Assembly: GCA_019246215.1 (NCBI GenBank)
Contig: JAFAQT010000427.1
Location: 12,882-76,881 of the forward strand
Source of the DNA: Verrucomicrobiota bacterium
Lineage (GTDB): Bacteria > Verrucomicrobiota > Verrucomicrobiia > Chthoniobacterales > JAFAMB01
Length of the DNA stretch: 64,000 nt
Direction: 5' to 3'
The position numbers and the translations under genes are program-made. Shown here piece after piece: positions 22,273 to 56,064 of this stretch (position 1 is the first letter of the stretch; every line of letters begins with the position of its first letter). Below the pieces are notes generated by a model. That model saw only the letters and a list, made by a program, of their open reading frames with translations. It did not search any database and had not been told where the DNA came from.

Positions 22273-22356
22273 GAACGCACTTCTGCGACTCCGACGATGA
22301 CCGACCACAAGAATCCCGACGCACAGAAGCGCGTCTCTTTCGAGAACTCATTGATT

Positions 22357-22803
22357 ATGCGGCTAAATGAATTAAAACCTCGCCCAGGTTCGAAGCACCG
22401 GGTTAAGCGCCTAGGGTGCGGCGAGAGTTCCGGCCACGGAAAAACGAGCGGCAAAGGTCATAAGGGCCAAAAGGCTCGTTCAGGAGGAAGCATCCGTCCT
22501 GGGTTCGAAGGCGGTCAGATGCCGCTTATTCGGCGCTTGCCAAAGCGGGGGTTTAATAACGCGGCGTTCAAGGCCTCTTATGCGCTTGTCAATCTGGGCG
22601 ACCTCGAACAGTTCGAAGAGGGTTCTCATGTCACCGAGCAGGTGCTCCGCGAAAAAGGGCTGGTGAACGGAAAATATGATGGATTGAAGATTCTGGGCCG
22701 TGGCGAACTCACCAAAAAATTGACGGTCGAAGCCGACAAATTCAGTAAAACCGGACAGCAGGGGATTGAAAACGCCGGGGGAACTGTAATTATTCGCGGT
22801 TAG
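22357..22803 (+). CDS. rplO: 50S ribosomal protein L15
   Basis: [44 protein letters not shown]. The track ORF from 22297 adds a non-conserved leader and is rejected. Confidence 0.94.
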
Positions 22804-22820
22804 TTCGAGTCGTTCGCCCC

Positions 22821-24323: not shown

Positions 24324-24335
24324 TGGAGAAGGGGG

Positions 24336-24943
24336 AAGAAGCGAATCGTTTTCCTAGGGCTGCCAGCTGCAGGAAAAAGGGACCCGCAGAGAATCCTTAC
24401 AGAAACGGGTCGGTATTCCAGCCGCGTCGACGAGCGATTCTTGGAGCGGAGGGAAAAAGCGGAACTTCGATGGGAATCGAGACCGCGAAGATCACTTCCA
24501 CTGGTAGCCTGACTCCGGACCAAATGGTTTTGCAGCTGTTGGCGCTTGGCTCGACAAGATGATACTCGGTTTTGTTCGATGGGTTTTCTGAAATGGTAAG
24601 GAAAAATCGAGCATTTCTAGGCCTTACTCTCCACGCGCAAGTTGGCGCTCGAACCGCGATTTCGTCGGAGCTCCCCCCGGCTGTGATCCACCAGCAGTGC
24701 TGCTAAGATTCGCATCTTCCAATTGCGGGAAAGTGATCAGCGTTCAGACGCCATATTAGAGAGGCGATTGATCCTGTCCGAACCTTCGGATCAACTGGAG
24801 GCTCGCCAGGATGATACCGGTAGCGCTTTCACGCGCCGGAGGGAGGAGTACAGGGAAAACAGTTCCGGTGACAGACTTTTATGATAGAGGAAGTATATTG
24901 GCGCGGCGTGGATGCGAGCCGTGCGGGAGAATCAGTTTTTTAA
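24336..24943 (+). pseudogene. adk: Adenylate kinase pseudogene (multiple frameshifts and stops)
   Basis: Adk-like pieces are spread over all three forward frames: KRIVFLGLPAAGK; GKGTRRESLQKRVGIPAASTSD; AILGAEGKSGTSMGIETAKITSTGSLTPDQMVLQLL, then a stop at 24560-24562; GFV-DGF; NCGKV; RQDDT; TVPVTDFY; GVDASRAGESVF. It occupies the canonical secY-adk-map position. The boundaries are approximate. Confidence 0.8.
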
Positions 24944-24967
24944 GGATGTGAGCGAGTTGATTATCGG

Positions 24968-25744
24968 ATGATCCCAATCAAGACACCGCAGGAAATTGAA
25001 AAGATGCGAGCCTCTTGCAAGCTGGCAAGTGCCATTCTTGAGAAGCTTTCTGCGATGCTCTGTCCGGGTATAACCACGAAGGATGTAGATCACTCAGGCG
25101 CGAAACTAATGGAGCAAGCGGGCTGCAAGAGCGCTTTCTTCGGTTACAGACGGTTCCCGGGTCACATCTGCATTTCTGTAAACGACGAGGTGGTTCACGG
25201 AATCGGCGGCTCCCGGCGTATTCAGTACGGGGACGTCGTGAAACTGGATATCGGCGTTGTATTGGACGGTTTCGTGGGCGACACCGCAGCCACTATTCCG
25301 ATCGGATTAGTGAGAGACGATGTGCAGCGGCTTCTGTCGGTGACCGAAGATGCGCTGAGCAAGGGGATAGAAAATGCGCGCGAAGGCCGTCGCCTGAACG
25401 AACTCTGTGCGGCGATCCAGGACGAAGTGGAATCCAATGGGTTTAGCGTGGTCAAGGAGTTTGTGGGGCATGGCGTTGGACGCCATCTTCATGAAGAACC
25501 ACAGATCCCAAATTATCGCACCCCTGGCGCTACAGCAAAATTAAGAGCGGGAATGACCCTTGCCATTGAGCCAATGGTCAATATGGGCCGCGCGGCGGTC
25601 AAAGTGCTGGACGACGATTGGACGGTTGTTACGGCTGACCATTTGCCTTCCGCACACTTTGAACACACAGTTTTGGTGACGAAAGGTGAACCAGAAATCT
25701 TGACATGGCGCGAAAAGACGTCATCGAAGTTGAGGGCAAGGTAG
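24968..25744 (+). CDS. map: Type I methionine aminopeptidase
   Basis: [11 protein letters not shown]...VVHGIG...GDVVKLDIG...DGFVGDTA...[17 protein letters not shown]...LAIEPM...EHTVLVT. Confidence 0.95.
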
Positions 25745-25923
25745 TTGAGTTGCTGCCCAATACGATGTTCCGGGTGGAGCTACCCAATCGACATCGGATT
25801 CTGGCGCATATCTCTGGGAAAATGCGATTGCATTTCATTCGGATCTTGCCAGGGGATAAAGTTATGGTAGAGATGTCTCCTTACGACTTGACCAAGGGTC
25901 GGATAACGTTCCGGCAAAAGTAA
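25705..25923 (+). CDS. infA: Translation initiation factor IF-1
   Basis: [41 protein letters not shown]...[21 protein letters not shown]. Overlaps the map 3' end by 40 nt. Confidence 0.97.
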
Positions 25924-25954
25924 GAATATTTTTAAGAGAAACGCTCCTGAGAGG

Positions 25955-25979
25955 GCACCCCTCGGGGTGCGTTTTTTTG
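25955..25979 (+). terminator. Rho-independent terminator-like hairpin between infA and rpmJ
   Basis: GCACCC-CTCG-GGGTGC followed by G and a T7 run (25972-25978), 32 nt after the infA stop. Confidence 0.6.
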
Positions 25980-25999
25980 TCCCCTGAGGACGGATTTGG

Positions 26000-26113
26000 A
26001 TGAAAGTGCGACCTTCTGTGAAACGGCTTTGTGAGAGCTGCAGGATTATAAAAAGAAAAAACGTCGTCCGTGTGGTTTGTAAAAATCCACGGCACAAACA
26101 GCGACAGGGTTGA
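26000..26113 (+). CDS. rpmJ: 50S ribosomal protein L36
   Basis: Own translation: [37 protein letters not shown]. It is below the ORF-track length cutoff. GAGGA lies 10 nt upstream of the ATG. Confidence 0.95.
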
Positions 26114-26173
26114 ACTGCCTGGATGAAGCAGTTGCGATTGATTTGTCCATGCGGACACCACCAATGATAGGAT

Positions 26174-26569
26174 ATGCCTCGATTACTTGGAGTTGATATA
26201 CCTGGAGATAAACGGATCGAAGCTTCGCTGCCCTACATTTATGGCATCGGGCCCAAAACCGCCAAAAAGGTCCTTGAGCAAGCAAACATTGACCCGAACG
26301 TGCGCGCGAAAAATCTCACGCCGGAACAGTTAGGCGAAATCGTTCATGCGATCAATGGGAGTGGATTACTGATCGAGGGGGATCTGCGACGCGATATTCA
26401 AGGCAACCTGAAGCGATTGCAGGCGATTCGATGCTATCGAGGAACACGGCACATTCGGGGACTTCCCGTTCGCGGACAAAGAACTTCAACCAACGCTCGG
26501 ACCCGGAAAGGTCCCCGCAAGACAGTTGGTGTGCAGCGCAACAAAGACGCCAAAGCAGGAAAAGTTTAG
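26174..26569 (+). CDS. rpsM: 30S ribosomal protein S13
   Basis: [26 protein letters not shown]...[26 protein letters not shown]. Confidence 0.97.
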
Positions 26570-26587
26570 CCCGACGGGGACCAAGGC

Positions 26588-27193
26588 ATGCCCAATCAAA
26601 CTGCGACACCAACGCCGACTCCTAAAAAAGATTCCGCAGCCGCAGGTTCTACAGCGATTTCGTCTGATCCGCCGGCACCTGTGGCGCCGGCGCCAGCACC
26701 GGCCGCTGAGCCTGCCAAGCCGACACGAACTCCGAAGGCCAAGACCAAGAAGGAAAGCGGGCCGACCGAAGGCGCCAAGGTAAGTCTCTCACTGGACGGC
26801 GGTGATGCCGAAAAGCCAAAGATCGTTAAGGCGAAAGGGAGTAAGAACGTTTCTGCGGGAGTTGCGCATGTGCTCGCTACATTTAACAATACTATCGTTT
26901 CGATCACCGATCTGAACGGCAGCGTAATCGGTTGGTCCAGCGCGGGAAAAGTTGGTTTCAAGGGATCCCGCAAGAGCACTGCATACGCTGCGCAGTTAGT
27001 AGCTCAGGATGCCTGCCGGCAAGCCATGGGACACGGTCTGAAGGAAGTTGAAGTGCTGGTCAAAGGTCCTGGGGCCGGACGCGAGTCCGCGGTTCGCGCG
27101 ATTCAGGCCATCGGCCTAGATATTTCGGTGATTCGAGACGTTACACCTGTCCCGCACAACGGTTGTCGTCCCCCGAAACAGCGCCGCGTTTGA
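26588..27193 (+). CDS. rpsK: 30S ribosomal protein S11 with a Pro/Ala/Thr-rich N-terminal extension of about 70 aa
   Basis: Core: [44 protein letters not shown]...[18 protein letters not shown]. It is preceded by the low-complexity stretch TPTPTPKK...[18 protein letters not shown]. Confidence 0.94.
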
Positions 27194-27212
27194 TTCGAAA
27201 GGGAATTTACTT

Positions 27213-27824
27213 ATGGCTCGTTACACTGGCCCCAAATCGAAAATCAGTCGTCGGTACGGAATCGCTCTGTTCGGTTCGAGTAAAGCACTGGAGAGGAAGA
27301 ATTATCCGCCCGGTATGCACGGTCCCAAGGGATCTCGTCGGAAGCAATCGGACTACGCAACCGCTCTCGCCGAAAAACAGAAAATGCGGCACATGTATGG
27401 TTTGTTGGAGCGGCAGTTTCGTCGTTACTTCGAAACCGCTCTGCGAAAACGCGGTGTAACCGGTGAGACCTTGCTGCAGATGCTGGAGACCAGGCTCGAT
27501 AATGTGGTCTATCGACTCGGATTTGCGAATTCGCGCGGAGCAGCTCGCCAACTGGTGTCCCACGGACATGTAACTGTGAATAATCGGAAGGTGAACGTAT
27601 CTTCTTATAATCTGAAACCGGGGGATGCGGTGGCAGTCGAGGACAGACCCGGTTCGCGGCGATTGGTCACTCGAAATCTTGAGTTGACCCAAATCCAGCC
27701 GGTGCCGGATTGGCTTGTGGTCGACAAGGACCAATTCCACGGTAAGATGATGCGAATTCCTTCCCGCGAAGAGATCGCTCCAGTGGTGAATGAGCAACTC
27801 GTCGTCGAGCTTTACTCGCGATGA
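27213..27824 (+). CDS. rpsD: 30S ribosomal protein S4
   Basis: MARYTGPKSKISRRYG...YGLLERQFRRYF...LETRLDNVVYRLGFA.SRGAARQLVSHGHV.VN. Confidence 0.97.
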   Translation: MARYTGPKSKISRRYGIALFGSSKALERKNYPPGMHGPKGSRRKQSDYATALAEKQKMRHMYGLLERQFRRYFETALRKRGVTGETLLQMLETRLDNVVYRLGFANSRGAARQLVSHGHVTVNNRKVNVSSYNLKPGDAVAVEDRPGSRRLVTRNLELTQIQPVPDWLVVDKDQFHGKMMRIPSREEIAPVVNEQLVVELYSR

Positions 27825-44029: not shown

Positions 44030-45958
44030 CTATGCGGCTGTTCTTGGATTCGCCGCGCGAGCGACTTTCAGAAAAGGCCTGATTTTTTCAAACGCAGCTT
44101 CTGCAGTAATGCCATGCTTCTTTCGTAAGGCAGGGATCGTACCATGCTCGATGAATTGATCCGGCCAACCGATGCGAACGACCGGAGTGGTGATCCTTGC
44201 TTCGGAGAGGTGCTCCATGACCGCGCAGCCAAAACCGTTGTGGAGAACGTGGTCCTCGAAGGTGCAGATCACATCAACGCCACGCGCAAAAAACTCTAGA
44301 GTGCCGACATCCAAAGGCTTAATCCATCGCGGATTGATCAATGCGACTGAAATGCCTTCGGCTGCGAGGAGCTTCGCGGTTTCCTGCGCCAGGGCGAACA
44401 TGTTTCCGAGCCCGACCAAAGCCACCTCGCGTCCATGCTGGACGACTTCGGCTTTGCCGATCTCGAGCAGTTTGGGTTGTGGCTTCGGCTTTGCACCGGT
44501 GCCGGTTCCGCGCGGATACCGGATAGCGATTGGTCCCTGGTGGTAATTCACCATGGTCCAGAGCATGTCCACAAACTCCTCTTCGTCCTTCGGCTGCATA
44601 TGCACCATGTTTGGTATATGCCGAAGGTACCCAATATCGAATAGACCGTGGTGAGTCGGTCCGTCATCTCCCGATAAGCCGGCTCTATCCATACATAGGG
44701 CAACGTTCAGATTTTGCAGCGCGATGTCATGGATAAGCATGTCATAGGCCCGCTGCAAGAACGTCGAGTAGATCGCGAGAAACGGCTTGAATCCTTCGGT
44801 CGCGAGACCGCTTGCAAATAGCGCTGCGTGCTCTTCTGCAATCCCGACATCGAAATATTGCTGCGGATGCTGCGCGGCGAAATGGAACAGGCCGGTGCCC
44901 GAAGGCATCGCGGCAGTTATCGCTATGATTCTATTGTTCTGATCAGCGAACTTTGCCAGCGTCTGGCCAAATAGCTCGGAATAAGTCGGAGTCGGTGCCG
45001 CTGTGGTTTCACCCGTTTCGAGCTTGAATTTACCAAGGCCATGAAACTTGTCCGGCTTGGCGATTGCCGGGGCATAGCCTTTGCCCTTCTGCGTGATGAT
45101 GTGGAGCAAGACGGGTTCGTTCTGCCTTTTCAAAAACTCGAATGTCTGAATCAGCAACGGTATATCATGCCCATCGATGGGCCCGTAATAGCGGAGGCCC
45201 AGATCTTCGAAGATCACGCTCGGTAGAACGAGGTGCTTAACACCCTCCTCGACCTTATGCACGAATTGTTGTGCAAACCGGCCCCCTATCATTTCCACGA
45301 ACTTCGCCGCTTTTTCGTGCAAATGACTGTAGGCATCGTTGGTGACCAATTTGTTCAGATAATTGGCGATTGCTCCAACATTTTTCGCAATTGACCATTC
45401 GTTGTCGTTCAGCACGACAATCAACCGTTTAGTGTTGTCGGCCACGTTATTCAATGCCTCGTAGCTGGTGCCGCAGGTAAACGCGGCATCGCCCGCAACG
45501 ACCACGACGTTTTCTCGTCCACCTCTTCGATCCCGAGCCACAGCCATCCCAAGTGCTGCAGAAAGTGAAGTGCCAGCGTGGCCGGCTCCGTAACAGTCGT
45601 GATTACTTTCGGTTCGAAGCAAAAATCCATTCAGTCCCTGGTATTGTCTGATCGTGTTGAAACGAACGCGTCGTCCCGTCAAAAGTTTGTGGACGTAGCC
45701 TTGATGGCTGACGTCAAAAACTAGCTTATCCTTTGGTGTGCTAAAGACACGGTGCAAGGCTATCGTGAGCTCCACAACACCCAAGTTTGGCCCGAGGTGT
45801 CCGCCGACCTGCGAAAGAACCGTTATGAGTTCATCCCGGATTTCCTGAGCCAGCTGAGGGAGTTTCCCTTCCTCAAGGCGCTTAAGGTCCGAGGGCGAAT
45901 CGATCGTATCCAATATCCGTGCTTCGGACGGCGCTTCAAAAGAGTCTGATTTCTTCAT
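44030..45958 (-). CDS. dxs: 1-deoxy-D-xylulose-5-phosphate synthase
   Basis: GGHLGPNLGVVELT.ALH..F..P.DK...DVSHQ.Y.HK.LTGR...GHAGTS.SAALG...GDAAFT.G...EALN...DGPTHHG.FD. Confidence 0.96.
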   Translation of the reverse strand: MKKSDSFEAPSEARILDTIDSPSDLKRLEEGKLPQLAQEIRDELITVLSQVGGHLGPNLGVVELTIALHRVFSTPKDKLVFDVSHQGYVHKLLTGRRVRFNTIRQYQGLNGFLLRTESNHDCYGAGHAGTSLSAALGMAVARDRRGGRENVVVVAGDAAFTCGTSYEALNNVADNTKRLIVVLNDNEWSIAKNVGAIANYLNKLVTNDAYSHLHEKAAKFVEMIGGRFAQQFVHKVEEGVKHLVLPSVIFEDLGLRYYGPIDGHDIPLLIQTFEFLKRQNEPVLLHIITQKGKGYAPAIAKPDKFHGLGKFKLETGETTAAPTPTYSELFGQTLAKFADQNNRIIAITAAMPSGTGLFHFAAQHPQQYFDVGIAEEHAALFASGLATEGFKPFLAIYSTFLQRAYDMLIHDIALQNLNVALCMDRAGLSGDDGPTHHGLFDIGYLRHIPNMVHMQPKDEEEFVDMLWTMVNYHQGPIAIRYPRGTGTGAKPKPQPKLLEIGKAEVVQHGREVALVGLGNMFALAQETAKLLAAEGISVALINPRWIKPLDVGTLEFFARGVDVICTFEDHVLHNGFGCAVMEHLSEARITTPVVRIGWPDQFIEHGTIPALRKKHGITAEAAFEKIRPFLKVARAANPRTAA

Positions 45959-46235
45959 TCTTGATTTTATTTGAGTCCTTCAGCGGATCCTGAACGTTCG
46001 TTGCGGCCGTCGACGGCGGTCTTCCATTTGCAGTGCGGCTTAGTGTTTCAATTCGATTTTCCGCGCCAGCGAGCCGTTGGTTACAGATGCCAACAAGCCG
46101 AATACCTTCCTCGTATCGGACCAGTAACTCTTCTAACGGTAATTTGGAAGACTCCATTTCTTCGACGATCTTTTCCAATCTTTCCATCGCCGTTTCGAAG
46201 GAGATCTCTGCTCCCCATGGTTCGCTATTGGGCAT
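45936..46235 (-). CDS. xseB: Exodeoxyribonuclease VII small subunit
   Basis: ISFETAMERLEKIVEEMESSKLPLEELLVRYEEGIRLVGICNQRL. Start set at ATG 46235. It overlaps the dxs start by 23 nt. Confidence 0.85.
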   Translation of the reverse strand: MPNSEPWGAEISFETAMERLEKIVEEMESSKLPLEELLVRYEEGIRLVGICNQRLAGAENRIETLSRTANGRPPSTAATNVQDPLKDSNKIKNEEIRLF

Positions 46236-46433
46236 CGGTAGGTTTGCACAGTAAACGGAGGCAAAGAGAAAGCCAATACTTTCGTATTGACGACTAATCG
46301 CCAGAATAGAGGACCCACACGTCAGATTTATGACGCAGCAGAGAAGATTTTGATGAGAAATGGACAATCCGGCAAACCAGTGCACTAAGTCCCAGGTTGG
46401 TTTAGCGGCGTTGAGCTCAAACGATCCGCCGGC

Positions 46434-46452
46434 AAGGCGGTCCGAGCCGGAC
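46434..46452. repeat. Palindromic 19-mer, copy A (partner at 37546-37564)
   Basis: AAGGCGGTCCGAGCCGGAC. It contains a GGTCCG-AGC-CGGACC hairpin nested inside a CCGCCGG...CCGGCGG outer stem. Confidence 0.5.
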
Positions 46453-46536
46453 CGGCGGTAGGAGAGAGGGTATCTGAATCGATACGTGACCGACGAGCAA
46501 CGCAGCCGCCGGCTCATTTTCAGCTCAACCCCGGGG

Positions 46537-46640
46537 GGCCGTCGCAGCCTTGGCGATTTTGGGCCGTTGCTCGCTCGACTCGTATCAGTCTAGACACGGG
46601 CCTTCCCTGCTTCCAAAATCGCCAACTCTGCGACGGTGCC
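46537..46640. repeat. Long imperfect inverted repeat (stem-loop) just downstream of the HtrA-like gene
   Basis: Left arm GGCCGTCGCAGCCTTGGCGATTTTGG (46537-46562). Right arm CCAAAATCGCCAACTCTGCGACGGTGCC (46613-46640). Pairing is 13 bp plus 7 bp around a 2-nt mismatch, with a 50-nt loop. Confidence 0.6.
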
Positions 46641-46666
46641 GTCAAACCGGCCTCGGAATTGGGATA

Positions 46667-47722
46667 CTAGTCGCTGTCCCGGAAGCGTTGCGCATCTTCT
46701 CGGTTCGCCGGCGCAAAGAGCGGAAGCCTTTGTTGAAGATAAGTCGGATGTTCGGCTGCGGTGATTGTTACCGAGATCTCTTTTCCCTCCCGGAGAACGG
46801 TGATTGGGACATCTTCGTCGGCAGTCAGAAAAAATGAAGCGTTGAGGACGTCAGGTGGGGAGTGTATTGCCATCGAGCCAATCCGGAGCAGAACATCCCC
46901 GGGCTGCAGGCCCGAATCTGCCCCAGGGGATCCCTCGGCGAAACTCTGAATCACGACCGACGAGTCATGCACGAGTTCATCGGATTCGATGACATTTACT
47001 CCTACCCATCCCGGTCTAACTTCTCCGAATCGGACGTAGTCTGTTCGGACTTTTTGCGCCGCTTTCATCGGGAGGGCATAACAAGCTGTCCGATTGTCGA
47101 TTGGAAAAATCAGGATGCCCACCACTTCGCCTTTCAAATTCAGGACAGGAGCACCGGCCTCGCCTCGCTGCGCGGCGATGTTCGCCCGAATTAAGGTGGT
47201 ACTGAAATATTGGTTCAAATACTTAAGGTCAAAACCGCCGATCATTCCGAACGTTGGCGTGACCGAAAGGTCCATCGGATATCCGATTGCTACGACCGGA
47301 GACGCCATTTTCAATTCATCTGAATCACCGATTGGCAGCCACGGCGTGGTGGCGGTGAGTCGGAGAATTGCAATCCCGCTGCGAGCATCGGCAACGAGAC
47401 GTTCGGCCGGATAACGGTTCACACCAAATTCGACGACGATATCCCGAGATTCGCCTCCCACCGCGTAGGCAGTCATGATTGTGCCGCTGGGATCGATGAA
47501 AAAGCCGGTGCCGGCCAACTTGCCATGTTCGTCCTCTGCCTCGATACGAACAACGGCATTTTTTGCGCTGTCGAAGACCCTCGCAACTTCGGACGAGATC
47601 GAGTCTAAACCTTGCTGCGCAAGGAGCGGCGCTGCTCCAAGCATCAAAAGAACCATGCCCATGTTCAGAGCCTTATACCGGCGGAAGCTCTGCACAGGCC
47701 TACTGCCAAGAAATTCCAACAT
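46667..47722 (-). CDS. HtrA/DegP-family trypsin-fold + PDZ protein, predicted catalytically inactive
   Basis: Signal peptide (MGMVLLMLGAAPLLAQQ). Protease-fold blocks: GTGFFIDPSGTIMTAYAV, SGIAILRL, GEAGAPVLNLKGEVVGI. PDZ: GWVGVNV...GLQPGDVLLRIG. By-eye alignment to DegP places Ala, Gly and Ala at the His, Asp and Ser triad positions. Confidence 0.8.
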   Translation of the reverse strand: MLEFLGSRPVQSFRRYKALNMGMVLLMLGAAPLLAQQGLDSISSEVARVFDSAKNAVVRIEAEDEHGKLAGTGFFIDPSGTIMTAYAVGGESRDIVVEFGVNRYPAERLVADARSGIAILRLTATTPWLPIGDSDELKMASPVVAIGYPMDLSVTPTFGMIGGFDLKYLNQYFSTTLIRANIAAQRGEAGAPVLNLKGEVVGILIFPIDNRTACYALPMKAAQKVRTDYVRFGEVRPGWVGVNVIESDELVHDSSVVIQSFAEGSPGADSGLQPGDVLLRIGSMAIHSPPDVLNASFFLTADEDVPITVLREGKEISVTITAAEHPTYLQQRLPLFAPANREDAQRFRDSD

Positions 47723-47727
47723 TAAGG

Positions 47728-48222
47728 TTAAAAGCTGAACGAAGCTTCGTAACTGACGGGTCTGCCGTCGAGGACATAGCGGGGAAGCGCTGTTTGAGAA
47801 GGCCGGACAACGGGAACGACATGAGGCGAAACTGAAGAAGGATTAAAGTTGGACCAGTCCACATTTCCGCTCAACGCCAATCGGTACGAGGAGCGTTCGA
47901 TCACTGGACTGGACGCTACTTTTGCCAGATTGGAACTGGTCCCGACCATCTCCTTGTAAGGAGCCCAAACACCTGAACCGACGATCGTGGCAGCCACGAG
48001 AAAAGCGGCAAATGCTGCCCCATACGCGTAAGTCGGAACCCGGAAGCTCCAAAGACTCGAAAGGAAACGCTCAAACCAGATTTGCACTGCCGGCCGCCGC
48101 AATAGGTCCTGGCGCTGGCGTCGATGGAATTCGTTCAGGGTACGGTCGAAATATCCTGGGGGCGGCTGCTCGAATCGTTTGAGCCGGAGCAATTTCTGGA
48201 GCTGTTGTTCGTCGAGCATCAT
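47728..48222 (-). CDS. Putative anti-sigma factor (single-pass membrane protein)
   Basis: 4-nt overlap with the upstream ECF sigma gene. Cytoplasmic N-terminus, one TM helix (YAYGAAFAAFLVAATIVGSGVW), and a ~75-aa periplasmic tail ending ...YEASFSF. No zf-HC2 motif. The call rests on context only. Confidence 0.45.
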   Translation of the reverse strand: MMLDEQQLQKLLRLKRFEQPPPGYFDRTLNEFHRRQRQDLLRRPAVQIWFERFLSSLWSFRVPTYAYGAAFAAFLVAATIVGSGVWAPYKEMVGTSSNLAKVASSPVIERSSYRLALSGNVDWSNFNPSSVSPHVVPVVRPSQTALPRYVLDGRPVSYEASFSF

Positions 48223-48806
48223 TTCTTTCTAAACTCCTCAAGGTAATTCTGCAACTGCCGATGTGCATAGAAGAGCCGAGAGCGTACGGTAGCCTCGGGA
48301 ACTCCGAGGATTTTCGCAATCTCCGCGTGTGCCATGCCTTGAATGTCAAACATTGTCACCACTGCTCTATGCTCAACAGACAGCTTCATCATCGCTTCGT
48401 TCAATCTGTGTTGAAGTTCCGAAAGATCTACTTCGCGAACCGGGGTGTTCGCAGCCGTTAAATCAATGAACTCCTTGTCATTCTGCACATTGGCGTCCAA
48501 GTCGTCCAGACTCATCTGAAAACGGCGCCCACGTTTCTTTACGAAGTTAATCGTCATGTTCACCGCGATGGCATGGATCCAGGTGTAAAAACTGGACTTG
48601 CCTCGGAAGCCGTTGATCGATCGATACGCTTTGGCAAAAACTTCGAGTAGCAGATCGTTCGCGTCCTCATGGTTGGCCGTCATGTTGTAGATCAGCGAAT
48701 AAATCCGAGGGCTGTATTTTTTCCAAAGAAGGTCGAAGGCCCGAGTGTCGCCGCTCTGCGTCTGGCGAACCAACGCTTCATCGTCGGGCAAGTTCTGGTC
48801 GTCCAT
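48219..48806 (-). CDS. ECF-type RNA polymerase sigma-70 factor
   Basis: Region 2: FDLLWKKYSPRIYSLIYNMT.NHEDANDLLLEVFAKAYRSI..F....SFYTWIHAIAVN. Region 4: LSVEHRAVVTMFDIQGMAHAEIAKILGVPEATVRSRLFYAHRQL. Start at ATG 48806 or 48842. The track start at 48980 would overlap pal and is rejected. Confidence 0.9.
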   Translation of the reverse strand: MDDQNLPDDEALVRQTQSGDTRAFDLLWKKYSPRIYSLIYNMTANHEDANDLLLEVFAKAYRSINGFRGKSSFYTWIHAIAVNMTINFVKKRGRRFQMSLDDLDANVQNDKEFIDLTAANTPVREVDLSELQHRLNEAMMKLSVEHRAVVTMFDIQGMAHAEIAKILGVPEATVRSRLFYAHRQLQNYLEEFRKK

Positions 48807-48894
48807 TAACCCTTTGCTCTGCAATAGCGGATCAAACCCCATGAAGGCAGAGAAGGAAAGGGAAAACGGAAAACCGGATTTGCGGCCGCTGCGA

Positions 48895-49389
48895 TCAACG
48901 GACGACGCCACTTTCGACCCGGCGATTTTTCGCCCATGCGGATTCGTCATGTCCGGGATCGGCGGGCATTTCCTGGCCAAAACTCACTGTCTGGATGCGG
49001 CTTGCCGACACACCGAGCGAGAGCAGAAAATTTCTTGTGGCCTGAGCCCGGCGTTCCCCAAGTCCGCGATTGTATTCAGGGGTGCCCCTCTCATCCGTGA
49101 ATCCCGCAAGGATGATGTTATTGTGAGCGGTCTTCAAAAAACTCCCAATCTGTTTGAGCTTGGTTCCTTCATCAGGAGATATTTCAAAGCTGTCGAAAGC
49201 AAAATAGATGGGCTGAAATTGTCCCTTTGCGACGTTGTTGCTGAAGAACGAGACACCTTCCTGGCGTGGTGGAAGAGGCGTGCCGTTCACGTAGTCTCCT
49301 TGCGGTCCCGAGTACTCCTGTTTTTGCGGTTTTTGGCAGGCGGCAAGGCTCAGGGCCACCAAACAACTCAAAGCTGGTATTCCTTTCAT
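48895..49389 (-). CDS. pal: Peptidoglycan-associated lipoprotein (OmpA-family, Pal)
   Basis: Lipobox LSLAAC. OmpA-like domain: IYFAFDSFEISPDEGTKL...ILAGFTDERGTPEYNRGLGERRAQATRNFL...GVSASRIQTVSFGQEMP. Directly follows tolB. Confidence 0.88.
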   Translation of the reverse strand: MKGIPALSCLVALSLAACQKPQKQEYSGPQGDYVNGTPLPPRQEGVSFFSNNVAKGQFQPIYFAFDSFEISPDEGTKLKQIGSFLKTAHNNIILAGFTDERGTPEYNRGLGERRAQATRNFLLSLGVSASRIQTVSFGQEMPADPGHDESAWAKNRRVESGVVR

Positions 49390-49412
49390 TGTGCTCACAA
49401 AGACGTTTTTTT

Positions 49413-50567
49413 TCAACGGGACCAAGTCGGCTCGGAAATTTGTCCGAGATCGCTTACCAGGCGCGTCTCGCGGCCGGTAACAGTATCAAACAAATAAAGA
49501 CCGGTCCCTCTTGGAAGGATGATGTGTCGCGAATCGGGGCCCCAAACCGGGTTCCCGCCATTAGCTACAGCCACACGGGTTGCCCCTGAGTCGAAGTCGA
49601 GTATTGCCACTTGGAATCCGCCGCCGCTCCTGATATTAAAAGCGATTTTCCGGCCGTCCGCTGACCAATTAGGCTGTGTGTTGTAGCCAAAACCGGTTGG
49701 CAAGAGCCGGCTCGAGCCGCCCTGAGATGAAATGCGATAGAGTTGTGGTCCTCCCTTCTCATCGGAGGAGTAGATAATTTCTGTTCCATCGGGCGACCAC
49801 GTCGGAGAGGATTCTACGCCACGGCTTCGCGTCAGGCGGCGAGGCGAGTCGCCATTGATACCGGTCACGTAGATCTCCGGGTTGCCATCTTTGCTCATCG
49901 TGCATGCAATGCGAGTTCCGTCGGGAGAGATTGCGGCGCCCGAGTTGGTTCCGGGGAATTTGATGATGCGATTGCGGGCTCCGCTGGTCAGATCGACCAG
50001 GTAAATATCAGCATAGCCGCTCTGATAGCCGGTATAAGCAAGCCGCCGACCATCTGCGGACAATGCCGGGCTAACACTGATTGCGCCGTCGTGCGTCAGT
50101 TGGAGCGTCCGCGCTCCGTCATAGTCGCAGGTATAAATTTCTTTGTGGCCGCTTCGATCAGCTACGAAAGCAACCTTCGAGAGCGCAATCCCTTTCTGAC
50201 CTGTCACCGTCTCGATCAGGTCATTTGTAAACTGGTGAACGGCGTGCCGGGTCTCCCCCGGGTAACTTTTTTGCAAAACGATGCCACCGGATTTCTCGGT
50301 GGCCAGTCCGTTGAAAGAACCGGGCGAGGCGGTGCCGCTGACCGTGATAGTGGCTGTGGCCGCGTTAGCTGGATATAACGCACCAGAGAGCTGTATGTCG
50401 CTTTTCAAGATGCTAGTGGCCTCACGCCCTGCTTGGCCGCTGATCTCTTTAACCTCGACTTGTTGTGAGGTCCCTTTGTGAACCGTTATCACGGGTGCAC
50501 CGGAATCTTGGCCAAACAGAGCGGTTGCGAAACAAAGGGAGAGAACAACCAATGGCGAAACGTTCAT
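49413..50567 (-). CDS. tolB: Tol-Pal system beta-propeller protein TolB
   Basis: Signal peptide from ATG 50567 (MNVSPLVVLSLCFATALFGQ). Repeated PD40/WD40-like blades (SPALSADGRRLAY, ISPDGTRIA, PTWSPDGTEIIY, PNWSADGRKIAF). Upstream of pal. Confidence 0.88.
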   Translation of the reverse strand: MNVSPLVVLSLCFATALFGQDSGAPVITVHKGTSQQVEVKEISGQAGREATSILKSDIQLSGALYPANAATATITVSGTASPGSFNGLATEKSGGIVLQKSYPGETRHAVHQFTNDLIETVTGQKGIALSKVAFVADRSGHKEIYTCDYDGARTLQLTHDGAISVSPALSADGRRLAYTGYQSGYADIYLVDLTSGARNRIIKFPGTNSGAAISPDGTRIACTMSKDGNPEIYVTGINGDSPRRLTRSRGVESSPTWSPDGTEIIYSSDEKGGPQLYRISSQGGSSRLLPTGFGYNTQPNWSADGRKIAFNIRSGGGFQVAILDFDSGATRVAVANGGNPVWGPDSRHIILPRGTGLYLFDTVTGRETRLVSDLGQISEPTWSR

Positions 50568-50688
50568 CGTACTTATTGCGCTTTTGCCATTTACCTGCTC
50601 AACGTCTGAAGTCAATCCGAACGCCCGGACCGCGGCGGACCTAATTGCTTTACACTGCAGGCTTTCGCCCGCTAGGTTCGCATCTTTC

Positions 50689-51654
50689 ATGATTCATCGT
50701 GTTCGCAAAGCATTCGTGCTTGGTGCCGGCTTAGGGGTTCGGATGCGGCCTTTGACGAACCTCCTGCCGAAACCATTGCTTCCGATCTTTGGGAAGCCGC
50801 TGATCACGTTTGCCCTCGACCATTTGCGCCAGGCCGGAATCGAGAAATTCTGGGTCAACTTGCACCATTTGCCGCAACAATTTGCCGCACATTTTCCGAA
50901 CAACGAATATAATGGGACGCCTCTTGAGCTGGTGCATGAAGCAGCTTTACTAGAGACCGGAGGCGGGATCAAAAACATCCAAGATCGGATCGGGAATGAG
51001 GCTTTTGTCGTTTACAGCGGTGATATCCTGACCGATTTGCCCGTCCAACTCCTGATCGAGGAACATTATTCAAAGCGCAACGATGTGACTTTGGCTCTGA
51101 GGACCACCAGTTTTTCGGCGAAGATCCGTTGGCAACCGGAAACGGGCCGAGTCGTTAACCTGCTCGGGCCTCCAAAGTCTAGCCAACCTGGCCAATACGA
51201 TTTTGCCGGTATTTCGGTCTGGAACCCGTCTGTTTTTGCCCGGATACCGCGTTCCACCAGCATTTCCTTGGTCCCGATCATCATTGAATGGATGAAATCG
51301 GGTGGAAAAATCGGCGGGATTCCCTTGGAAGAAAGCCGCTGGTTCAACGTCGGTTCCAGGAAGGATTACCTCTCTGCACACCAAATTATTGCGCGGGAAC
51401 GATGGGTACCTGATTACCTGCGCGGTGGTTCTTGGCCGATCCAAATCGATATTTCGGCTCAGATCTCACCAGAGACCAAGATCCTTGGGGGATCCTTCGT
51501 AGGAGCTCGATGCAATATCGGGAGAGACGTTCTTCTGGAGGATTCGATTTTGTTTGCTGGTTCCTCTATTCCTCGCAGGACAACGCTGCGGTCCTGCATC
51601 GTAGCAGGCATTGAGATTGAACCGGGCGAATATCTGGAGACGGATTTTGTATGA
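50689..51654 (+). CDS. Sugar-1-phosphate nucleotidyltransferase (MurU-like) with a C-terminal left-handed beta-helix
   Basis: NTP-transferase motif AFVLGAGLGVRMRPLT...PKPLLPI.GKPLI. Hexapeptide-repeat tail. Paired with an AmgK-like kinase. The MurNAc-1-P specificity is inferred from that pairing only. Confidence 0.6.
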   Translation: MIHRVRKAFVLGAGLGVRMRPLTNLLPKPLLPIFGKPLITFALDHLRQAGIEKFWVNLHHLPQQFAAHFPNNEYNGTPLELVHEAALLETGGGIKNIQDRIGNEAFVVYSGDILTDLPVQLLIEEHYSKRNDVTLALRTTSFSAKIRWQPETGRVVNLLGPPKSSQPGQYDFAGISVWNPSVFARIPRSTSISLVPIIIEWMKSGGKIGGIPLEESRWFNVGSRKDYLSAHQIIARERWVPDYLRGGSWPIQIDISAQISPETKILGGSFVGARCNIGRDVLLEDSILFAGSSIPRRTTLRSCIVAGIEIEPGEYLETDFV

Positions 51655-52658
51655 GCTTGGAGCGACTTGTCGATCAAACCCGTGAGCGTTTTCCGCATTA
51701 TGACAAATCAAATGTTGAAATTCTGCCGCTCGAAAAAGGTGGCTCCGACCGAAGCTATTATCGTGTGCGCTTCAGCACGGACCATTCACTGATCCTTGTA
51801 ACGTACAATCCCGAGAAACCAGAAAACGAACGGTTCGTTGCCATCGCCAAGTTCCTAAATGAGATCGGGGTAAACGCGCCTTTCATCTACCATCATGACC
51901 ACCTTCAAGGTCTGATCTGGATGCAGGATCTGGGCGAAGAAGATCTCTGGCACTACCGCAATGAGCCTTGGGGCACTCGACGCCGCTTTTATGAAGCTGC
52001 CCTAGACCAGATAGGGTTATTGCACAGCTCCGATCCGGACTCCGGGAAAAAGCTGCACCTGCAATCCTGCTTCGACGAATCGCTTTATCGGTGGGAACAA
52101 AATTACTGCTTGCAGAATTGTTTCGGGCTTTATTTCCAGCTTCCGGCAACCGAAATAGATAAGCTGCGGCGACATGCGGCATTCGATAATCTCGCCAAAC
52201 GATTAGCTTCCTATCAAAGAGTTTTGGTCCACCGCGATTTTCAATCGCAGAACATCATCGTCTGGAACGAACAACTATACTTGATCGATTTCCAGGGGCT
52301 ACGCCCCGGGTTGCGTCAATATGATCTGGCCTCCCTCTTGTTCGATCCGTACGTCACCTTCGTTCATCAGGAACGCGAGCACCTTTTCCAATATTACTTT
52401 GAACGGAATGACCATGGCTGCACGTTGCCGGAGTTTGAGCGAGTATATCTAGACTGCGGGATTCAACGTCTGATGCAGGCACTCGGCGCCTATGGCGTGC
52501 TTGGAGTACTACGGGAAAAGAAGGAATTCCTGCGCCATATTCGACCCGCGATAAAAACGTTGATCGAGGTTGCGTCCGCCGCAGAGAACTTTAGCTTCTT
52601 TGCAGAATTTTTAACTGGTCTTCCGGACAGACCTAAACCCCAGGATCGACTCGCGTGA
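51651..52658 (+). CDS. Aminoglycoside-phosphotransferase-fold anomeric sugar kinase (AmgK-like)
   Basis: APH/choline-kinase catalytic loop: LVHRDFQSQNIIVWNEQLYLIDFQG...YDLASLLFDPY. 4-nt overlap with the upstream nucleotidyltransferase gene. Confidence 0.6.
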   Translation: MSLERLVDQTRERFPHYDKSNVEILPLEKGGSDRSYYRVRFSTDHSLILVTYNPEKPENERFVAIAKFLNEIGVNAPFIYHHDHLQGLIWMQDLGEEDLWHYRNEPWGTRRRFYEAALDQIGLLHSSDPDSGKKLHLQSCFDESLYRWEQNYCLQNCFGLYFQLPATEIDKLRRHAAFDNLAKRLASYQRVLVHRDFQSQNIIVWNEQLYLIDFQGLRPGLRQYDLASLLFDPYVTFVHQEREHLFQYYFERNDHGCTLPEFERVYLDCGIQRLMQALGAYGVLGVLREKKEFLRHIRPAIKTLIEVASAAENFSFFAEFLTGLPDRPKPQDRLA

Positions 52659-54655
52659 CCACAAAAAAGACCGATTTAGAACGGTTACAAACCGTTGTCA
52701 TAGAAAATCTTGAGCCTTGCATCGACGCAGGGCGTTATCCCATTAAGAGGGTTATTGGCCAAGAGCTGAACGTTTCAGCCGACATTTTCAAGGATGGTCA
52801 TGATCAGCTTTCGGCTAATCTCAAATGGCGAAAGGCAACCAGTACAGATTGGAACCGGACACCGATGAAGCCGACCGAAAATGACCGATGGGAAGGCGTT
52901 TGTCATTTCATCGAAAATGCGCCCCACGAATACACCATTGAGGCTTGGGAGGATCACTTCAAATCGTGGCAGGTCGAATATGCCAAGAAGTACGGCGCCG
53001 GGAACACGGACCTCAGAACTGAACTCGAGGAAGGCGCGATTCTCGTGGCAAAGGCTGCTGAACGTGCTAGGCGCAAAGACGACCAGAAACGTTTAGCGCT
53101 CTTTTCGCAGCAACTGAAAAATGCAGATGCTCATTTTGGTGCCCAATTGGCTAAAAATCCTGAATTGACGGGATTAATGGGTGCGTGGCCCGATCTCGAT
53201 CTGAGCACGGAACTGCGCCCTTATCTTCGAGTGACCGTGGATCGCTCGGAAGCGCTCTTTGCGGCCTGGTACGAATTTTTCCCGCGCTCTGCAGACGGTA
53301 AGCCGAATACCGGGTCGAAGTTTCGCGATTGCCTAGGCCGAATCGACGATGCAAAAGCGATGGGTTTCGATGTTATCTATTTTCCTCCGATTCATCCGAT
53401 CGGATTTACGAAGCGAAAAGGGAAAAATAATTCTACCACCAGTGAACCGGGCGATCCCGGTGTCCCCTACGCAATCGGCAGCCAGTTTGGTGGCCACAAA
53501 GCTGTAGAACCAGAACTCGGCACGTTGGACGATTTTGATTGGCTCGTGGATGAGGTGCACGCAAGAGGGATGGAAATTGCGCTAGATTTTGCGATCAACT
53601 GTTCTCCGGACCATCCTTATGTTAAAGAGCATCCTGACTGGTTTTTTCATCGTCCAGACGGATCCATCAAATATGCTGAAAATCCGCCCAAAAAGTATGA
53701 GGATGTTTATCCGCTGAATTTCTATAATCCTGACTGGAAGAATCTCTGGGAGGAAATGAAGGAGGTGATTCTTTTCTGGGTACGCCACGGAGTTCGCATT
53801 TTCCGCGTGGACAATCCGCATACCAAACCGAACTCTTTTTGGGAATGGATGATATCGGAAGTCCAGAGGGATTATCCGGATGTGATTTTTCTGGCGGAAG
53901 CCTTCACGCGGCCCAAGATGATGAAGGCGCTAGCGAAGGGAGGGTTTACACAATCTTACACCTACTTCACATGGCGAAATACCAAATGGGAACTGAGTGA
54001 GTACCTCTCTGAACTTACTCAGACAGAAATGAAGTATTACTTCCGCGCGAACTTTTTTCCGAATACACCGGATATTTTGCCGTTCTTCTTGCAGACGGGC
54101 GGCCGCCCTGCTTTTTTGATTCGCGCCGTTCTTGCTGCGACGTTGAGCACTGTGTATGGCATCTACAGCGGGTTTGAGCTATGTGAAAATGTCGCGGTTT
54201 CGGGCAAAGAAGAATATCTCAATTCGGAAAAATACCAGTTCAAAGAACGGGATTGGAATGCACCCGGCAATATCAAAGATTACATCGCAAAGCTAAACGC
54301 GATTCGGCGTGCTAACCGCGCGATGCACGAATACGAGAATCTCCGATTCCATACCGTCGAAAACGAACACATATTATTCTACTCCAAGGCGACAGAAGCC
54401 CTCGACAACATCATCCTGGTTCTGGTCAGTGTCGATCCGTTCAATCCGCAGAGCGGATTTGCCTATGTCCCGGTGGAAAATTTCCAGATCGACGTCGCGG
54501 ATTCATACCAGGTCGAGGATCTGATAACGGGCGAGAAATTCACTTGGCGCGGGCGCCGGAATTTCGTGATGCTCGATCCAAATTCTCGTCCTGCACATAT
54601 CTTTCGCATCCGGCGTCTGATCGGGATGGATGGAGCGCAAATGATCTTCGCATGA
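52655..54655 (+). CDS. glgE: Alpha-1,4-glucan:maltose-1-phosphate maltosyltransferase
   Basis: GlgE N-terminal domain: IDAGRYPIKRVIGQELNVSADIFKDGHDQLSANLKWRK. GH13 core: IYFPPIHPIG...GSQFGGH...LGTLDDFDWLV...GMEIALDFA...HPDWF...FRVDNPHTKP..FWEW...FLAEAFTRP. Confidence 0.85.
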   Translation: MTTKKTDLERLQTVVIENLEPCIDAGRYPIKRVIGQELNVSADIFKDGHDQLSANLKWRKATSTDWNRTPMKPTENDRWEGVCHFIENAPHEYTIEAWEDHFKSWQVEYAKKYGAGNTDLRTELEEGAILVAKAAERARRKDDQKRLALFSQQLKNADAHFGAQLAKNPELTGLMGAWPDLDLSTELRPYLRVTVDRSEALFAAWYEFFPRSADGKPNTGSKFRDCLGRIDDAKAMGFDVIYFPPIHPIGFTKRKGKNNSTTSEPGDPGVPYAIGSQFGGHKAVEPELGTLDDFDWLVDEVHARGMEIALDFAINCSPDHPYVKEHPDWFFHRPDGSIKYAENPPKKYEDVYPLNFYNPDWKNLWEEMKEVILFWVRHGVRIFRVDNPHTKPNSFWEWMISEVQRDYPDVIFLAEAFTRPKMMKALAKGGFTQSYTYFTWRNTKWELSEYLSELTQTEMKYYFRANFFPNTPDILPFFLQTGGRPAFLIRAVLAATLSTVYGIYSGFELCENVAVSGKEEYLNSEKYQFKERDWNAPGNIKDYIAKLNAIRRANRAMHEYENLRFHTVENEHILFYSKATEALDNIILVLVSVDPFNPQSGFAYVPVENFQIDVADSYQVEDLITGEKFTWRGRRNFVMLDPNSRPAHIFRIRRLIGMDGAQMIFA

Positions 54656-56064
54656 GAAAGGCTGTCTGGTTCGGGATTTTTGTTGCGGCATTCCTGTTTG
54701 GGTGTGGCCAGTCCAAAGAACAGGCGATTCAGGAATTGGAGAGATTGAACCTGAAATTTGCGCCAGATGATTTTGTGCAGTCGGCGGAAAAAGGGGATGT
54801 CAAGGCGATCCAACTCTTTTTGAATGCGGGTATCGACTGCGATGTTCAAAACGCCACGGGGTCTACGGCTCTAATGGCCGCTGCAAAAAATGGGCGAATC
54901 GAAGTGGTGAAGAAGTTGCTGGACCAGAAAGTGGATGTGAATGCCGTGGGTAAACAGGGAGTAACTGCTCTCATGCTGGCGGCGCAGAATAATCAAGTCG
55001 AGATCGTTAAGCTGCTTTTGAAAAAGAATGCGGATCCGAATGTGGAGGACCAAACCGGATGGTCGGCTCTGATGAAGGCCGTCTACCAAGGAAACACAGA
55101 TTGCGTAGCAGCTCTCGCCGCACGGTCGCGGCAGGAAGTGAATCGAGGATTGCTCATCGCCGCATTGACCGGGCATAAAGAGATCGCGAAGATCTTGCTC
55201 GACAATGGAGCCGAGATAGACACCCGAGCGGATGACGGACGGACTCCTTTGATGCTCGCGGCGGGCAAGGGTGACAACGATCTTGTGTCGTTTCTGTTGC
55301 AGGCCGGCGCCGATCCAACCCGCACTGATAAATCCGGTGCGACTGCAAGTTCCCTGGCGATCGCAAAGGGTTATAAAGTAATAGCAGATCGGTTAGAGAA
55401 GGCGCCGGTACCGCCGAGCGTCAATGCTTCCCCTTCAAATGCAGTCGCAACCCGCAATAGTTCGAAGCCAACTGGGGTAATGTCAGATCAGGATCTCCTC
55501 TCTCAACCGGAAGAAAGAAAGAGTTCTGTTTCCGATTCTCGCCGGACCGCTAACCCGGGAAACTCTGCCAAGGTGCCGGGCGATTCTGTTCAGACCAAAC
55601 CTGCTACCGTTATGGAGATCGAGCAGGAGTTTCTCCCGGTGAAACTCACCGAGGTCAACGGGAAAAAGGCAATGATTCAAGCTGCTGACGGAGAAAAATA
55701 CAGCGTTGCGATCGGAGACCAGTTGAAGGGTCTGGATTATAAGGTGACCGATGTTGTCATGCGCAGCACGGAAGACAAAGATGGCAATCCAGTGGATGAC
55801 TCCATCGTCAAGCTGCGAAATACGAAATCTGGGCAGTCTGTTGCGCTCATCAAAGGCGTGCCTGCACAGGAACACGCTGCGTACGCGATACTCGCTTTTC
55901 CTGGCTCTGATCAGACGCTAAAAATTGAAGTGGACCAAACTTTCTCGATTCCTGGGGATCCCGGTCACACCTACATAGTTTTGGATATTCGCCCGACACA
56001 GGTCATCATCCGGCGGATCGAGGACAATCGCGTCTCCACGCTGGAAAAAAAATCTCATAGCTGA
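54652..56064 (+). CDS. Ankyrin-repeat lipoprotein with a C-terminal beta-rich domain
   Basis: The ATG overlaps the glgE stop (ATGA). Signal/lipobox: MRKAVWFGIFVAAFLFGCG. About six or seven ankyrin repeats (e.g. GSTALMAAAKNGRIEVVKKLLDQKVDVN, GVTALMLAAQNNQVEIVKLLLKKNADPN, GRTPLMLAAGKGDNDLVSFLLQAGADP). These are followed by a Ser/Pro linker and a ~150-aa domain. Confidence 0.8.
   Translation: MRKAVWFGIFVAAFLFGCGQSKEQAIQELERLNLKFAPDDFVQSAEKGDVKAIQLFLNAGIDCDVQNATGSTALMAAAKNGRIEVVKKLLDQKVDVNAVGKQGVTALMLAAQNNQVEIVKLLLKKNADPNVEDQTGWSALMKAVYQGNTDCVAALAARSRQEVNRGLLIAALTGHKEIAKILLDNGAEIDTRADDGRTPLMLAAGKGDNDLVSFLLQAGADPTRTDKSGATASSLAIAKGYKVIADRLEKAPVPPSVNASPSNAVATRNSSKPTGVMSDQDLLSQPEERKSSVSDSRRTANPGNSAKVPGDSVQTKPATVMEIEQEFLPVKLTEVNGKKAMIQAADGEKYSVAIGDQLKGLDYKVTDVVMRSTEDKDGNPVDDSIVKLRNTKSGQSVALIKGVPAQEHAAYAILAFPGSDQTLKIEVDQTFSIPGDPGHTYIVLDIRPTQVIIRRIEDNRVSTLEKKSHS

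Follow-up and report, generated by a model that had tools for sequence, protein, structure and literature searches.

A sigma factor, anti-sigma-like and pseudo-HtrA gene trio across Verrucomicrobiota, placed behind tolB-pal in one Chthoniobacterales sub-clade

We analysed a 64,000-nucleotide (nt) stretch of contig JAFAQT010000427.1 from a Verrucomicrobiota bacterium (assembly GCA_019246215.1), called the window here, which has a G+C content of about 53% and carries five minus-strand genes at positions 46667-50567; homologues assign it to a metagenome-assembled genome of the order Chthoniobacterales. In the order of reading, these genes, which were called from the list of open reading frames (ORFs) and the sequence, encode a TolB-like protein (49413-50567), a Pal-like lipoprotein (48895-49389), an RpoE/AlgU-like sigma factor of the extracytoplasmic function (ECF) type with 195 residues (48219-48806), an anti-sigma-like single-pass membrane protein of 164 residues that belongs to a family without annotation (47728-48222; the partner) and a catalytically dead HtrA/DegS-like protein (46667-47722; pseudo-HtrA). 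The initial annotation had described a co-directional series with short gaps, and this description held: tolB and pal are separated by 23 nt, pal and the sigma gene by 88 nt (52 nt if the sigma gene starts at a second possible in-frame ATG at 48842), the sigma stop codon and the partner start codon share 4 nt (ATGA), and the partner and pseudo-HtrA genes are 5 nt apart. Also as described, the upstream neighbour of tolB is divergent (a MurU-like nucleotidyltransferase gene, 50689-51654, plus strand), and we found no MotA_ExbB, ExbD or TolA domains, and so no tolQRA, in the other non-ribosomal ORFs scanned in the window. With this divergent gene upstream of tolB and the sigma gene downstream of pal, the locus does not have the layout of a classical tol operon. 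Since the equivalog models for TolB, Pal, RpoE and HtrA all score below their curated cut-offs, the gene names used here denote kinds of protein and not strict orthology.

For comparison, a single scan of a genome collection gave 80 species-level loci, onto which the window proteins were mapped by tblastn. We call near clade the Chthoniobacterales sub-clade in which pseudo-HtrA identity is at least 56%, and far or sister clade the Chthoniobacteraceae-like loci.

The first two genes form a recognizable tolB-pal unit. The tolB start is the ATG that opens the signal peptide MNVSPLVVLSLCFATALFGQ; Pfam finds the PD40 beta-propeller in four stretches (E = 1e-33), and the TIGR02800 TolB model, aligned over its positions 131-418, reaches 260 bits and so stays under its curated cut-off of 343. 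The likeness to a TolB N-domain, for which Pfam gave no match, was judged by eye only. The second protein has an OmpA-like domain (E = 7e-20), a lipobox (LAAC) and a gene 23 nt after tolB, and its TIGR02802 Pal score of 112 bits is slightly under the cut-off of 125. Ahead of tolB lies a sigma-70-like promoter candidate (50588-50615, minus strand), which consists of TTGACT (50615-50610), a 16-nt spacer and TAAATG (50593-50588). Of 25 related loci, 24 have the TTGACT-N16-TAAATG motif at a distance of 28-50 nt before the tolB start, and we counted just 30 matches in 2.56 Mb (all loci, both strands). Since the motif precedes tolB in nearly all of these loci and is near-absent elsewhere, we infer that tolB-pal has its own housekeeping-type promoter.

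The third gene encodes an ECF sigma factor by its Pfam domains (Sigma70_r2, Sigma70_r4_2 and Sigma70_ECF) and by TIGR02937, which gives 101 bits with a cut-off of 42.9. The RpoE equivalog model TIGR02939 gives 133.5 bits and so falls short of its cut-off of 236. Among solved structures, the best match is 6in7_B, which we take to be Pseudomonas aeruginosa AlgU, and Escherichia coli sigma-E (1or7) is also one of the closest; protein identity across the 80 loci is 67-98%.

The last gene retains the HtrA architecture, with a Trypsin_2 fold at residues 71-203 (Pfam, E = 2e-17) and one PDZ domain at residues 241-321 (PDZ_2, E = 2e-10). Residues 66-342 align to the solved structures of DegP-like, MucD and DegQ chains, the second-best solved match being MucD chain 8k2y, and none of the NCBIfam HtrA models comes near its cut-off. 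In the structure-based alignment, the catalytic His, Asp and Ser are replaced by Ala87 (codon 47464-47462), Gly116 (47377-47375) and Ala189 (47158-47156, all minus strand), and GEAGA stands where active HtrAs have GNSGG. The protease had been called dead from the window alone, and the comparison corroborates this: 14 aligned homologues, the least similar at 54% identity, lack the triad too, as do about 135 of the 150 top matches in an exhaustive search of representatives clustered at 50% identity, with genuine His-Asp-Ser HtrAs only at the weak end of that list. Hence, pseudo-HtrA belongs to a large and old pseudo-protease family and is not a recent pseudogene.

HtrA proteins act as trimers and higher oligomers (PMC11642142), which leaves some room for a protein that is not functionally dead, either by using non-canonical residues or by entering mixed oligomers that steer an active paralogue to the anti-sigma factor as a site-1 protease adaptor. 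Also consistent with such a function, Glu188, which adjoins the former Ser position, is invariant in the homologue alignment (A1), and a second, distant HtrA-like match lies nearby in loci L041, L047, L060, L061 and L077. However, none of the three triad positions is kept, and the substitutes vary (A, E, T, D or S at position 87, G or N at 116, and A, I or G at 189), which argues against a new fixed catalytic site, and the module encodes no partner protease. We therefore judge residual or borrowed catalysis very unlikely.

What pseudo-HtrA has kept is the carboxylate-binding loop of its PDZ domain. This loop, R-P-G-W-V-G (47000-47017, minus strand), aligns with the WLGV and ELGI loops of the MucD and DegP-like chains and reads R.GW.G in most representatives. 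Alignment A1 shows no variation at R236, P237, G238, W239 and G241, nor at many other columns. The AlphaFold2 model of the protein is good for the PDZ domain only (predicted local distance difference test score, pLDDT, about 90).

The partner protein had no match in Pfam or NCBIfam even at E = 10, and searches of the PDB with the single sequence or a 28-sequence profile returned nothing relevant. Across 72 species, we found the same parts in the same protein: a conserved N-terminus, one transmembrane segment, a variable linker and a conserved C-terminal tail. The N-terminus carries the conserved cytoplasmic motif LLRLKRxEQPPPGYF..EFHRRQR; the first 60 residues contain 11 Lys and Arg and 7 Asp and Glu, the hydrophobic segment spans residues 69-87, and the topology is N-in and single-pass. 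The tail, PRYVLDGRPVSYEASFSF-COOH (47731-47784, minus strand), has the motif PRY[VI]xDxRPxSYE....F in 66 of the 72 species. The protein ends in Phe in 68 species, in Tyr in 3 and in Leu in 1, and 44 of the 72 have Phe at the third position from the end. The AlphaFold2 model of the partner (mean pLDDT 57.5, low confidence) has three N-terminal helices, the transmembrane helix and coil.

Position and topology indicate that the partner is most likely the anti-sigma factor of the neighbouring sigma factor; the context for this role is the 4-nt overlap with the sigma gene, the N-in single-pass topology and the conserved cytoplasmic motif. A middle gene that is not an anti-sigma factor, in a trio that is a conserved neighbourhood with the sigma factor regulated otherwise, seems highly improbable to us. 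Such a reading would fit the lack of homology to anti-sigma domains in Pfam, NCBIfam and PDB and the short cytoplasmic part (about 60 residues), but anti-sigma factors can be short, as CnrY shows. It is also at odds with the ATGA translational coupling seen here, with similar overlaps in distant loci, with the membrane topology and with a cytoplasmic motif that is kept from Chthoniobacterales to Opitutae.

We found the trio of sigma, partner and pseudo-HtrA genes in all loci of the 80-locus set that are long enough, and the partner and pseudo-HtrA genes were never apart in any locus examined. Among the 25 near-clade loci with enough upstream sequence, 23 have tolB-pal directly ahead of the sigma gene, and the arrangement with tolB-pal upstream and xseB-dxs downstream occurs in the near clade only. 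In contrast, tolB-pal is beside the trio in none of 40 sister-clade loci (and not within 10 kb in any of them) and in none of six Opitutae-type loci, and all of these keep the trio. Hence, the trio, which is found across Verrucomicrobiota, long predates the tolB-pal linkage, which is specific to one Chthoniobacterales sub-clade. The initial annotation had named comparative synteny as the check on the linkage, and the answer is divided: the linkage is kept within this sub-clade and absent from the sister-clade and Opitutae-type loci. Its recurrence in 23 of 25 related species-level genomes makes the arrangement more than a chance event; apparently, two envelope units have come to lie side by side in one lineage.

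In the two remaining near-clade lineages (L004/5 and L027), the trio is intact and tolB-pal has decayed. The remnants sit between the MurU-like gene and the sigma gene (L004 5440-5690, with L005 the same, and L027 2450-3150); all that is left of tolB is an N-terminal fragment fused to a C-terminal one, and pal is either shortened or gone. These lineages either lost Tol-Pal or carry another copy elsewhere.

The six distant Opitutae-type loci, at 29-36% identity, have an ECF sigma gene, a gene for a protein without a Pfam match and a pseudo-HtrA gene, and all six partners end in Phe, one of them in Y-S-F. One of these loci is from the assembly of a cultured isolate (GCA_010500615.1), and the names attached to related hits are Oceanipulchritudo, Puniceicoccales and Opitutales. 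In four of the six (L086, L087, L088 and L091), a polyprenyl synthase gene lies directly upstream of the sigma gene and is thus a recurring sigma neighbour other than tolB-pal. In the sister-clade loci L064 and L037, Pfam identifies a folB or Zn-peptidase gene upstream of the trio and a convergent ligA downstream. Two genes past the trio, beyond ligA, these two loci have a gene for a fusion of a BadF-type sugar kinase and a SIS (MurQ/GKRP-like) domain (L064 13702-15504 and L037 13378-15117), which puts a cell-wall sugar recycling gene near the trio in a second, unrelated context and may be coincidence.

The spacer between pal and the sigma gene ranges from 28 to 503 nt across the near clade. 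Searching this spacer in the window for sigma-70-like and RpoE-type promoters gave nothing convincing, and an RpoE-type promoter (GGAAC-N16/17-(G)TCT type) is absent from the spacer of the window and of every near-clade locus. A hairpin after pal (48887-48872) was considered as a terminator and rejected, as it folds no better than shuffled sequence (z = 0.2). Since the spacer has neither a convincing terminator nor an RpoE-type promoter, co-transcription from the tolB promoter is plausible, and read-through into the sigma gene is possible in the near-clade lineage.

The last ~65 nt of the spacer are conserved in 17 near-clade loci, and the sequence immediately after pal is variable. For the conserved block (48801-48870, minus strand), we predict a hairpin in which the ribosome-binding site and AUG of the sigma gene pair with an upstream pyrimidine tract. 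Its folding energy of -25.9 kcal/mol is thermodynamically unusual (z = -3.3); covariation is weak, the sequences being too alike to support the fold. Masking of the sigma ribosome-binding site and AUG by this hairpin is plausible as a model. Most near-clade species have a stop codon directly against the sigma ATG (TGAATG or TAATG), which leaves a short upstream ORF that recalls the RseD leader peptide of E. coli rpoE. Near-perfect long inverted repeats (for example, GCCTGCATCTCTCGCAAATTT...AAATTTGCGAGAGATGCAGGC) occur in the pal-sigma spacers of L001 (about 5770-5830) and L022 (about 5960-6010), where they could be terminators or REP-like (repetitive extragenic palindrome) insulators; the window has no repeats of this type.

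These observations bear on the larger claim of the initial annotation, that the sigma module is coupled to Tol-Pal, being co-regulated with it or monitoring it. Under this claim, the five genes would be one functional operon. It is true that tolB-pal adjoins the sigma gene in 23 of 25 near-clade genomes and that the spacer has neither a convincing terminator after pal nor a promoter of the RpoE type; where this spacer is 83 nt long, moreover, the conserved block begins about 20 nt past the pal stop codon, so that a promoter of its own would hardly fit. Mutations in tol-pal are known to switch on sigma-E in E. coli (PMC7391070). However, the trio stands without tolB-pal in 40 of 40 sister-clade and six of six Opitutae-type loci and is intact where tolB-pal has decayed, the spacer varies from 28 to 503 nt with long hairpins in some species, and the tolB promoter is sigma-70-like, with no TGAAC-N17-GTCT motif of the kind described below ahead of tolB. 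We consider a single functional operon unlikely. Hence, the adjacency and the possibility of co-transcription survive from the claim of coupling, and the idea that the module monitors Tol-Pal specifically finds no support, given the intact trio beside decayed tolB-pal and a tolB promoter that is not of ECF type. The juxtaposition is therefore lineage-specific and represents no new regulatory principle, which tempers the original claim.

A candidate target of the sigma factor lies inside its own gene. The motif TTGAAC-N17-GTCT (48378-48404, minus strand) spans the codons from L135 and N136 to L142 and S143, and its TGAAC-N17-GTCT form is present inside the sigma coding sequence in 31 of 31 near-clade loci and inside five of the six Opitutae-type sigma genes. 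In 13 far-clade loci, we found it upstream of the sigma ORF, where 0.015 occurrences per 400 nt are expected. Codon choice at the motif is skewed: the Leu135 codon is TTG in 72 of 82 sequences and CTG in the other 10, and Ser143 is TCT in 60 of 82, compared with 13 of 82 for Ser176, and this skew is strong relative to the other conserved Leu and Ser columns of the sigma gene. The spacing of the motif matches the E. coli sigma-E consensus. In E. coli, rseA P3 is a sigma-E-dependent promoter within rpoE (PMC8595263), and by analogy the embedded motif may be a feedback promoter for the partner and pseudo-HtrA genes. Other matches to the motif in the window (47421, 29257 and 4703) were dismissed, as they are inside coding regions, are not conserved and are as many as expected by chance.

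Recurring blocks upstream of the far-clade sigma genes were tried as -35 and -10 elements and discarded after frame analysis, which revealed an in-frame N-terminal extension with variation at synonymous sites. Hence, this extension evolves as coding sequence. It adds about 35-55 residues to the sister-clade sigma ORF (L036-L085; for example, L064 8777-9466, L072 and L041), and its peptides are kept within subgroups (such as ...SDLLSSG... and ...WPAPAQ..FP...); the near clade has no such extension.

We regard it as somewhat probable that the locus consists of two tandem units, tolB-pal with its own promoter and an envelope-signalling trio that acts through a tail and its receptor. In this mechanism, the anti-sigma-like partner would hold the sigma factor at the membrane and expose to the periplasm a variable linker and a conserved tail with a C-terminal Phe, often as F-x-F. 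Such a tail would resemble the Y-x-F ends of the outer-membrane proteins that are bound by the DegS PDZ domain; binding of these C-termini by DegS, like the shielding of RseA by RseB, is established in E. coli (PMC8103513). Because the partner ends in a Phe motif, the PDZ loop is kept and the two genes are never separated, we propose that pseudo-HtrA could bind the tail as a non-catalytic receptor or shield, in the manner of RseB/MucB or CnrX with the anti-sigma factors on which they act. Under envelope stress, for instance when outer-membrane proteins fail to assemble and compete for the PDZ domain, the tail would come free; unlinked proteases would then remove the anti-sigma factor and release the sigma factor. 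The free sigma factor might re-synthesise the anti-sigma factor and the pseudo-protease through the embedded TGAAC-N17-GTCT motif, a negative feedback as at rseA P3, and in the near clade read-through from the tolB promoter might account for part of the transcription of its own gene.

A sharper form of this proposal is more tentative: Verrucomicrobiota would have an outer-membrane stress pathway of a kind not described before, in which a DegS/MucD-like protease would have permanently become a non-catalytic receptor, the anti-sigma factor's own Phe-x-Phe-COOH tail, like that of an outer-membrane protein, would dock in its PDZ domain, and the signal would pass by competitive displacement and not by allosteric activation of a site-1 protease; one Chthoniobacterales lineage would have wired the system behind the tolB-pal promoter.

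Pseudo-HtrA could instead be an effector, a chaperone-only holdase for envelope proteins with no contact to the anti-sigma factor; its place in the sigma operon would then be comparable to that of degP and mucD in the sigma-E and AlgU regulons. Its HtrA fold and PDZ domain are kept, and proteolytically inactive HtrA variants still protect cells as chaperones (PMC11642142). However, the gene is strictly tied to that of the partner (by 5-nt gaps or overlaps) across the order and always occurs with the Phe-terminated tail, even at 29-36% identity; a general holdase would have no need to stay in a three-gene unit across the phylum. We hence find a role as a mere holdase doubtful.

Several points weigh against the receptor mechanism. 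The partner shows no detectable homology to known anti-sigma domains (class I anti-sigma domain, RseA_N, zf-HC2 and others), both AlphaFold2 models are of low confidence, and the pairing of tail and PDZ domain is drawn from conservation and analogy only. The embedded motif overlaps the conserved peptide LNEAMMKLS, so its conservation is partly at the protein level, and its GTC is missing in 5 of 82 loci. We found no promoter of the sigma gene's own in the window, and the taxa with the trio are mostly uncultured.

Downstream, the module ends in a 431-nt spacer (46236-46666, minus strand) ahead of xseB-dxs. Comparison with relatives shows that the last ~135 nt, nearest xseB, are kept; this part is probably the promoter or leader of xseB-dxs. 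In the first ~300 nt, between the pseudo-HtrA gene and xseB, lies a palindromic repeat of about 160 nt (46433-46594), a possible small mobile or REP-like element that can be aligned in either orientation to L001 11742-11928. Rfam gave no matches at E <= 1 for 45800-50800.

Divergent from tolB, the MurU-like gene is followed by an AmgK-like kinase gene (together 50689-52658, plus strand). Both score well below the NCBIfam cut-offs, and the pair points to a peptidoglycan-recycling bypass. Genes for a GlgE-like maltosyltransferase (52655-54655) and an ankyrin-repeat protein (54544-56064) come next, and the whole block is syntenic in most near-clade loci. Elsewhere, the window holds a large ribosomal-protein region of the str/S10/spc/alpha type (10598-27800), which was recognized by ORF sizes and sequences such as S12, two adjoining bactofilin genes (6443-7844, plus strand) and a gene for a membrane-anchored tetratricopeptide-repeat (TPR) protein (7853-8548, minus strand) that is YfgM/CpoB-like by architecture only (a TPR_6 match). 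The TPR and bactofilin genes are far from tolB-pal, and we make no link between them and tolB-pal.

We propose that the trio is an unannotated, widespread version of the RpoE/AlgU-type system, with a pseudo-enzyme as its HtrA component and an anti-sigma-like family that has no database annotation. In the literature, we found no description of a natural pseudo-HtrA with an ECF sigma partner or of a tolB-pal/ECF operon. Databases label pseudo-HtrA as 'serine protease Do' and the partner as 'hypothetical protein', and both labels are misleading. If the tail and PDZ model is true, it would show how a stress-sensing protease can turn into a pure receptor and would offer a way into the envelope-stress signalling of Verrucomicrobiota, a phylum that is abundant yet poorly studied.

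Compared with known systems, the tolB-pal unit resembles the canonical tol-pal cluster (ybgC-tolQRA-tolB-pal-cpoB) in the short distance from tolB to pal and in having a promoter immediately ahead of tolB. In contrast to that cluster, whose order tolQ-tolR-tolA-tolB-pal has been called highly conserved (PMC7391070), here tolQRA is absent upstream, cpoB is absent downstream, and an ECF module follows pal.

For the trio, several systems offer parallels. In magnetotactic bacteria, MamO is a naturally inactivated protein of the HtrA/trypsin fold that is kept for a non-proteolytic role, in an unrelated function and context; the match of pseudo-HtrA to the MamO model NF040961 (NCBIfam) is weak, and the likeness in sequence is distant. 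CnrYXH of Cupriavidus metallidurans has a short single-pass anti-sigma factor whose small periplasmic C-terminal part is held by a dedicated, operon-encoded, non-enzymatic periplasmic sensor. However, this sensor, CnrX, is a metal-binding helical protein without the HtrA fold, and the CnrYXH sigma factor is of a different ECF group, to whose structure (4cxf) the sigma factor described here has a weak match. ECF sigma, anti-sigma and HtrA-like genes also stand in a row in sigE-rseA-htrA of Mycobacterium tuberculosis, where RseA is cytoplasmic and HtrA is catalytically competent, and the same order is found in rpoE-rseA-mucD of Xanthomonas. The algU-mucABCD operon of P. aeruginosa again shares the order of sigma, anti-sigma and HtrA-like genes, but its MucD is an active protease, whereas the triad is lost throughout a large family here; in addition, the trio has no MucB or MucC, and its partner is not a MucA homologue.

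The E. coli rpoE-rseABC operon with DegS and RseP is similar in having an RpoE-like ECF sigma gene with a membrane anti-sigma gene directly downstream, an operon-encoded periplasmic negative regulator, an HtrA-family PDZ protein in the pathway and, at rseA P3, a promoter for the negative regulators that depends on the sigma factor and lies within its gene (PMC8595263). It differs in that the partner described here is unrelated in sequence to RseA and that RseB and RseC have no counterpart in the trio. Furthermore, unlike DegS, the HtrA-family member has its gene within the operon; having lost its catalytic triad, it cannot be the site-1 protease. In contrast to RseA, the anti-sigma-like protein itself bears a C-terminal Phe like that of outer-membrane proteins.

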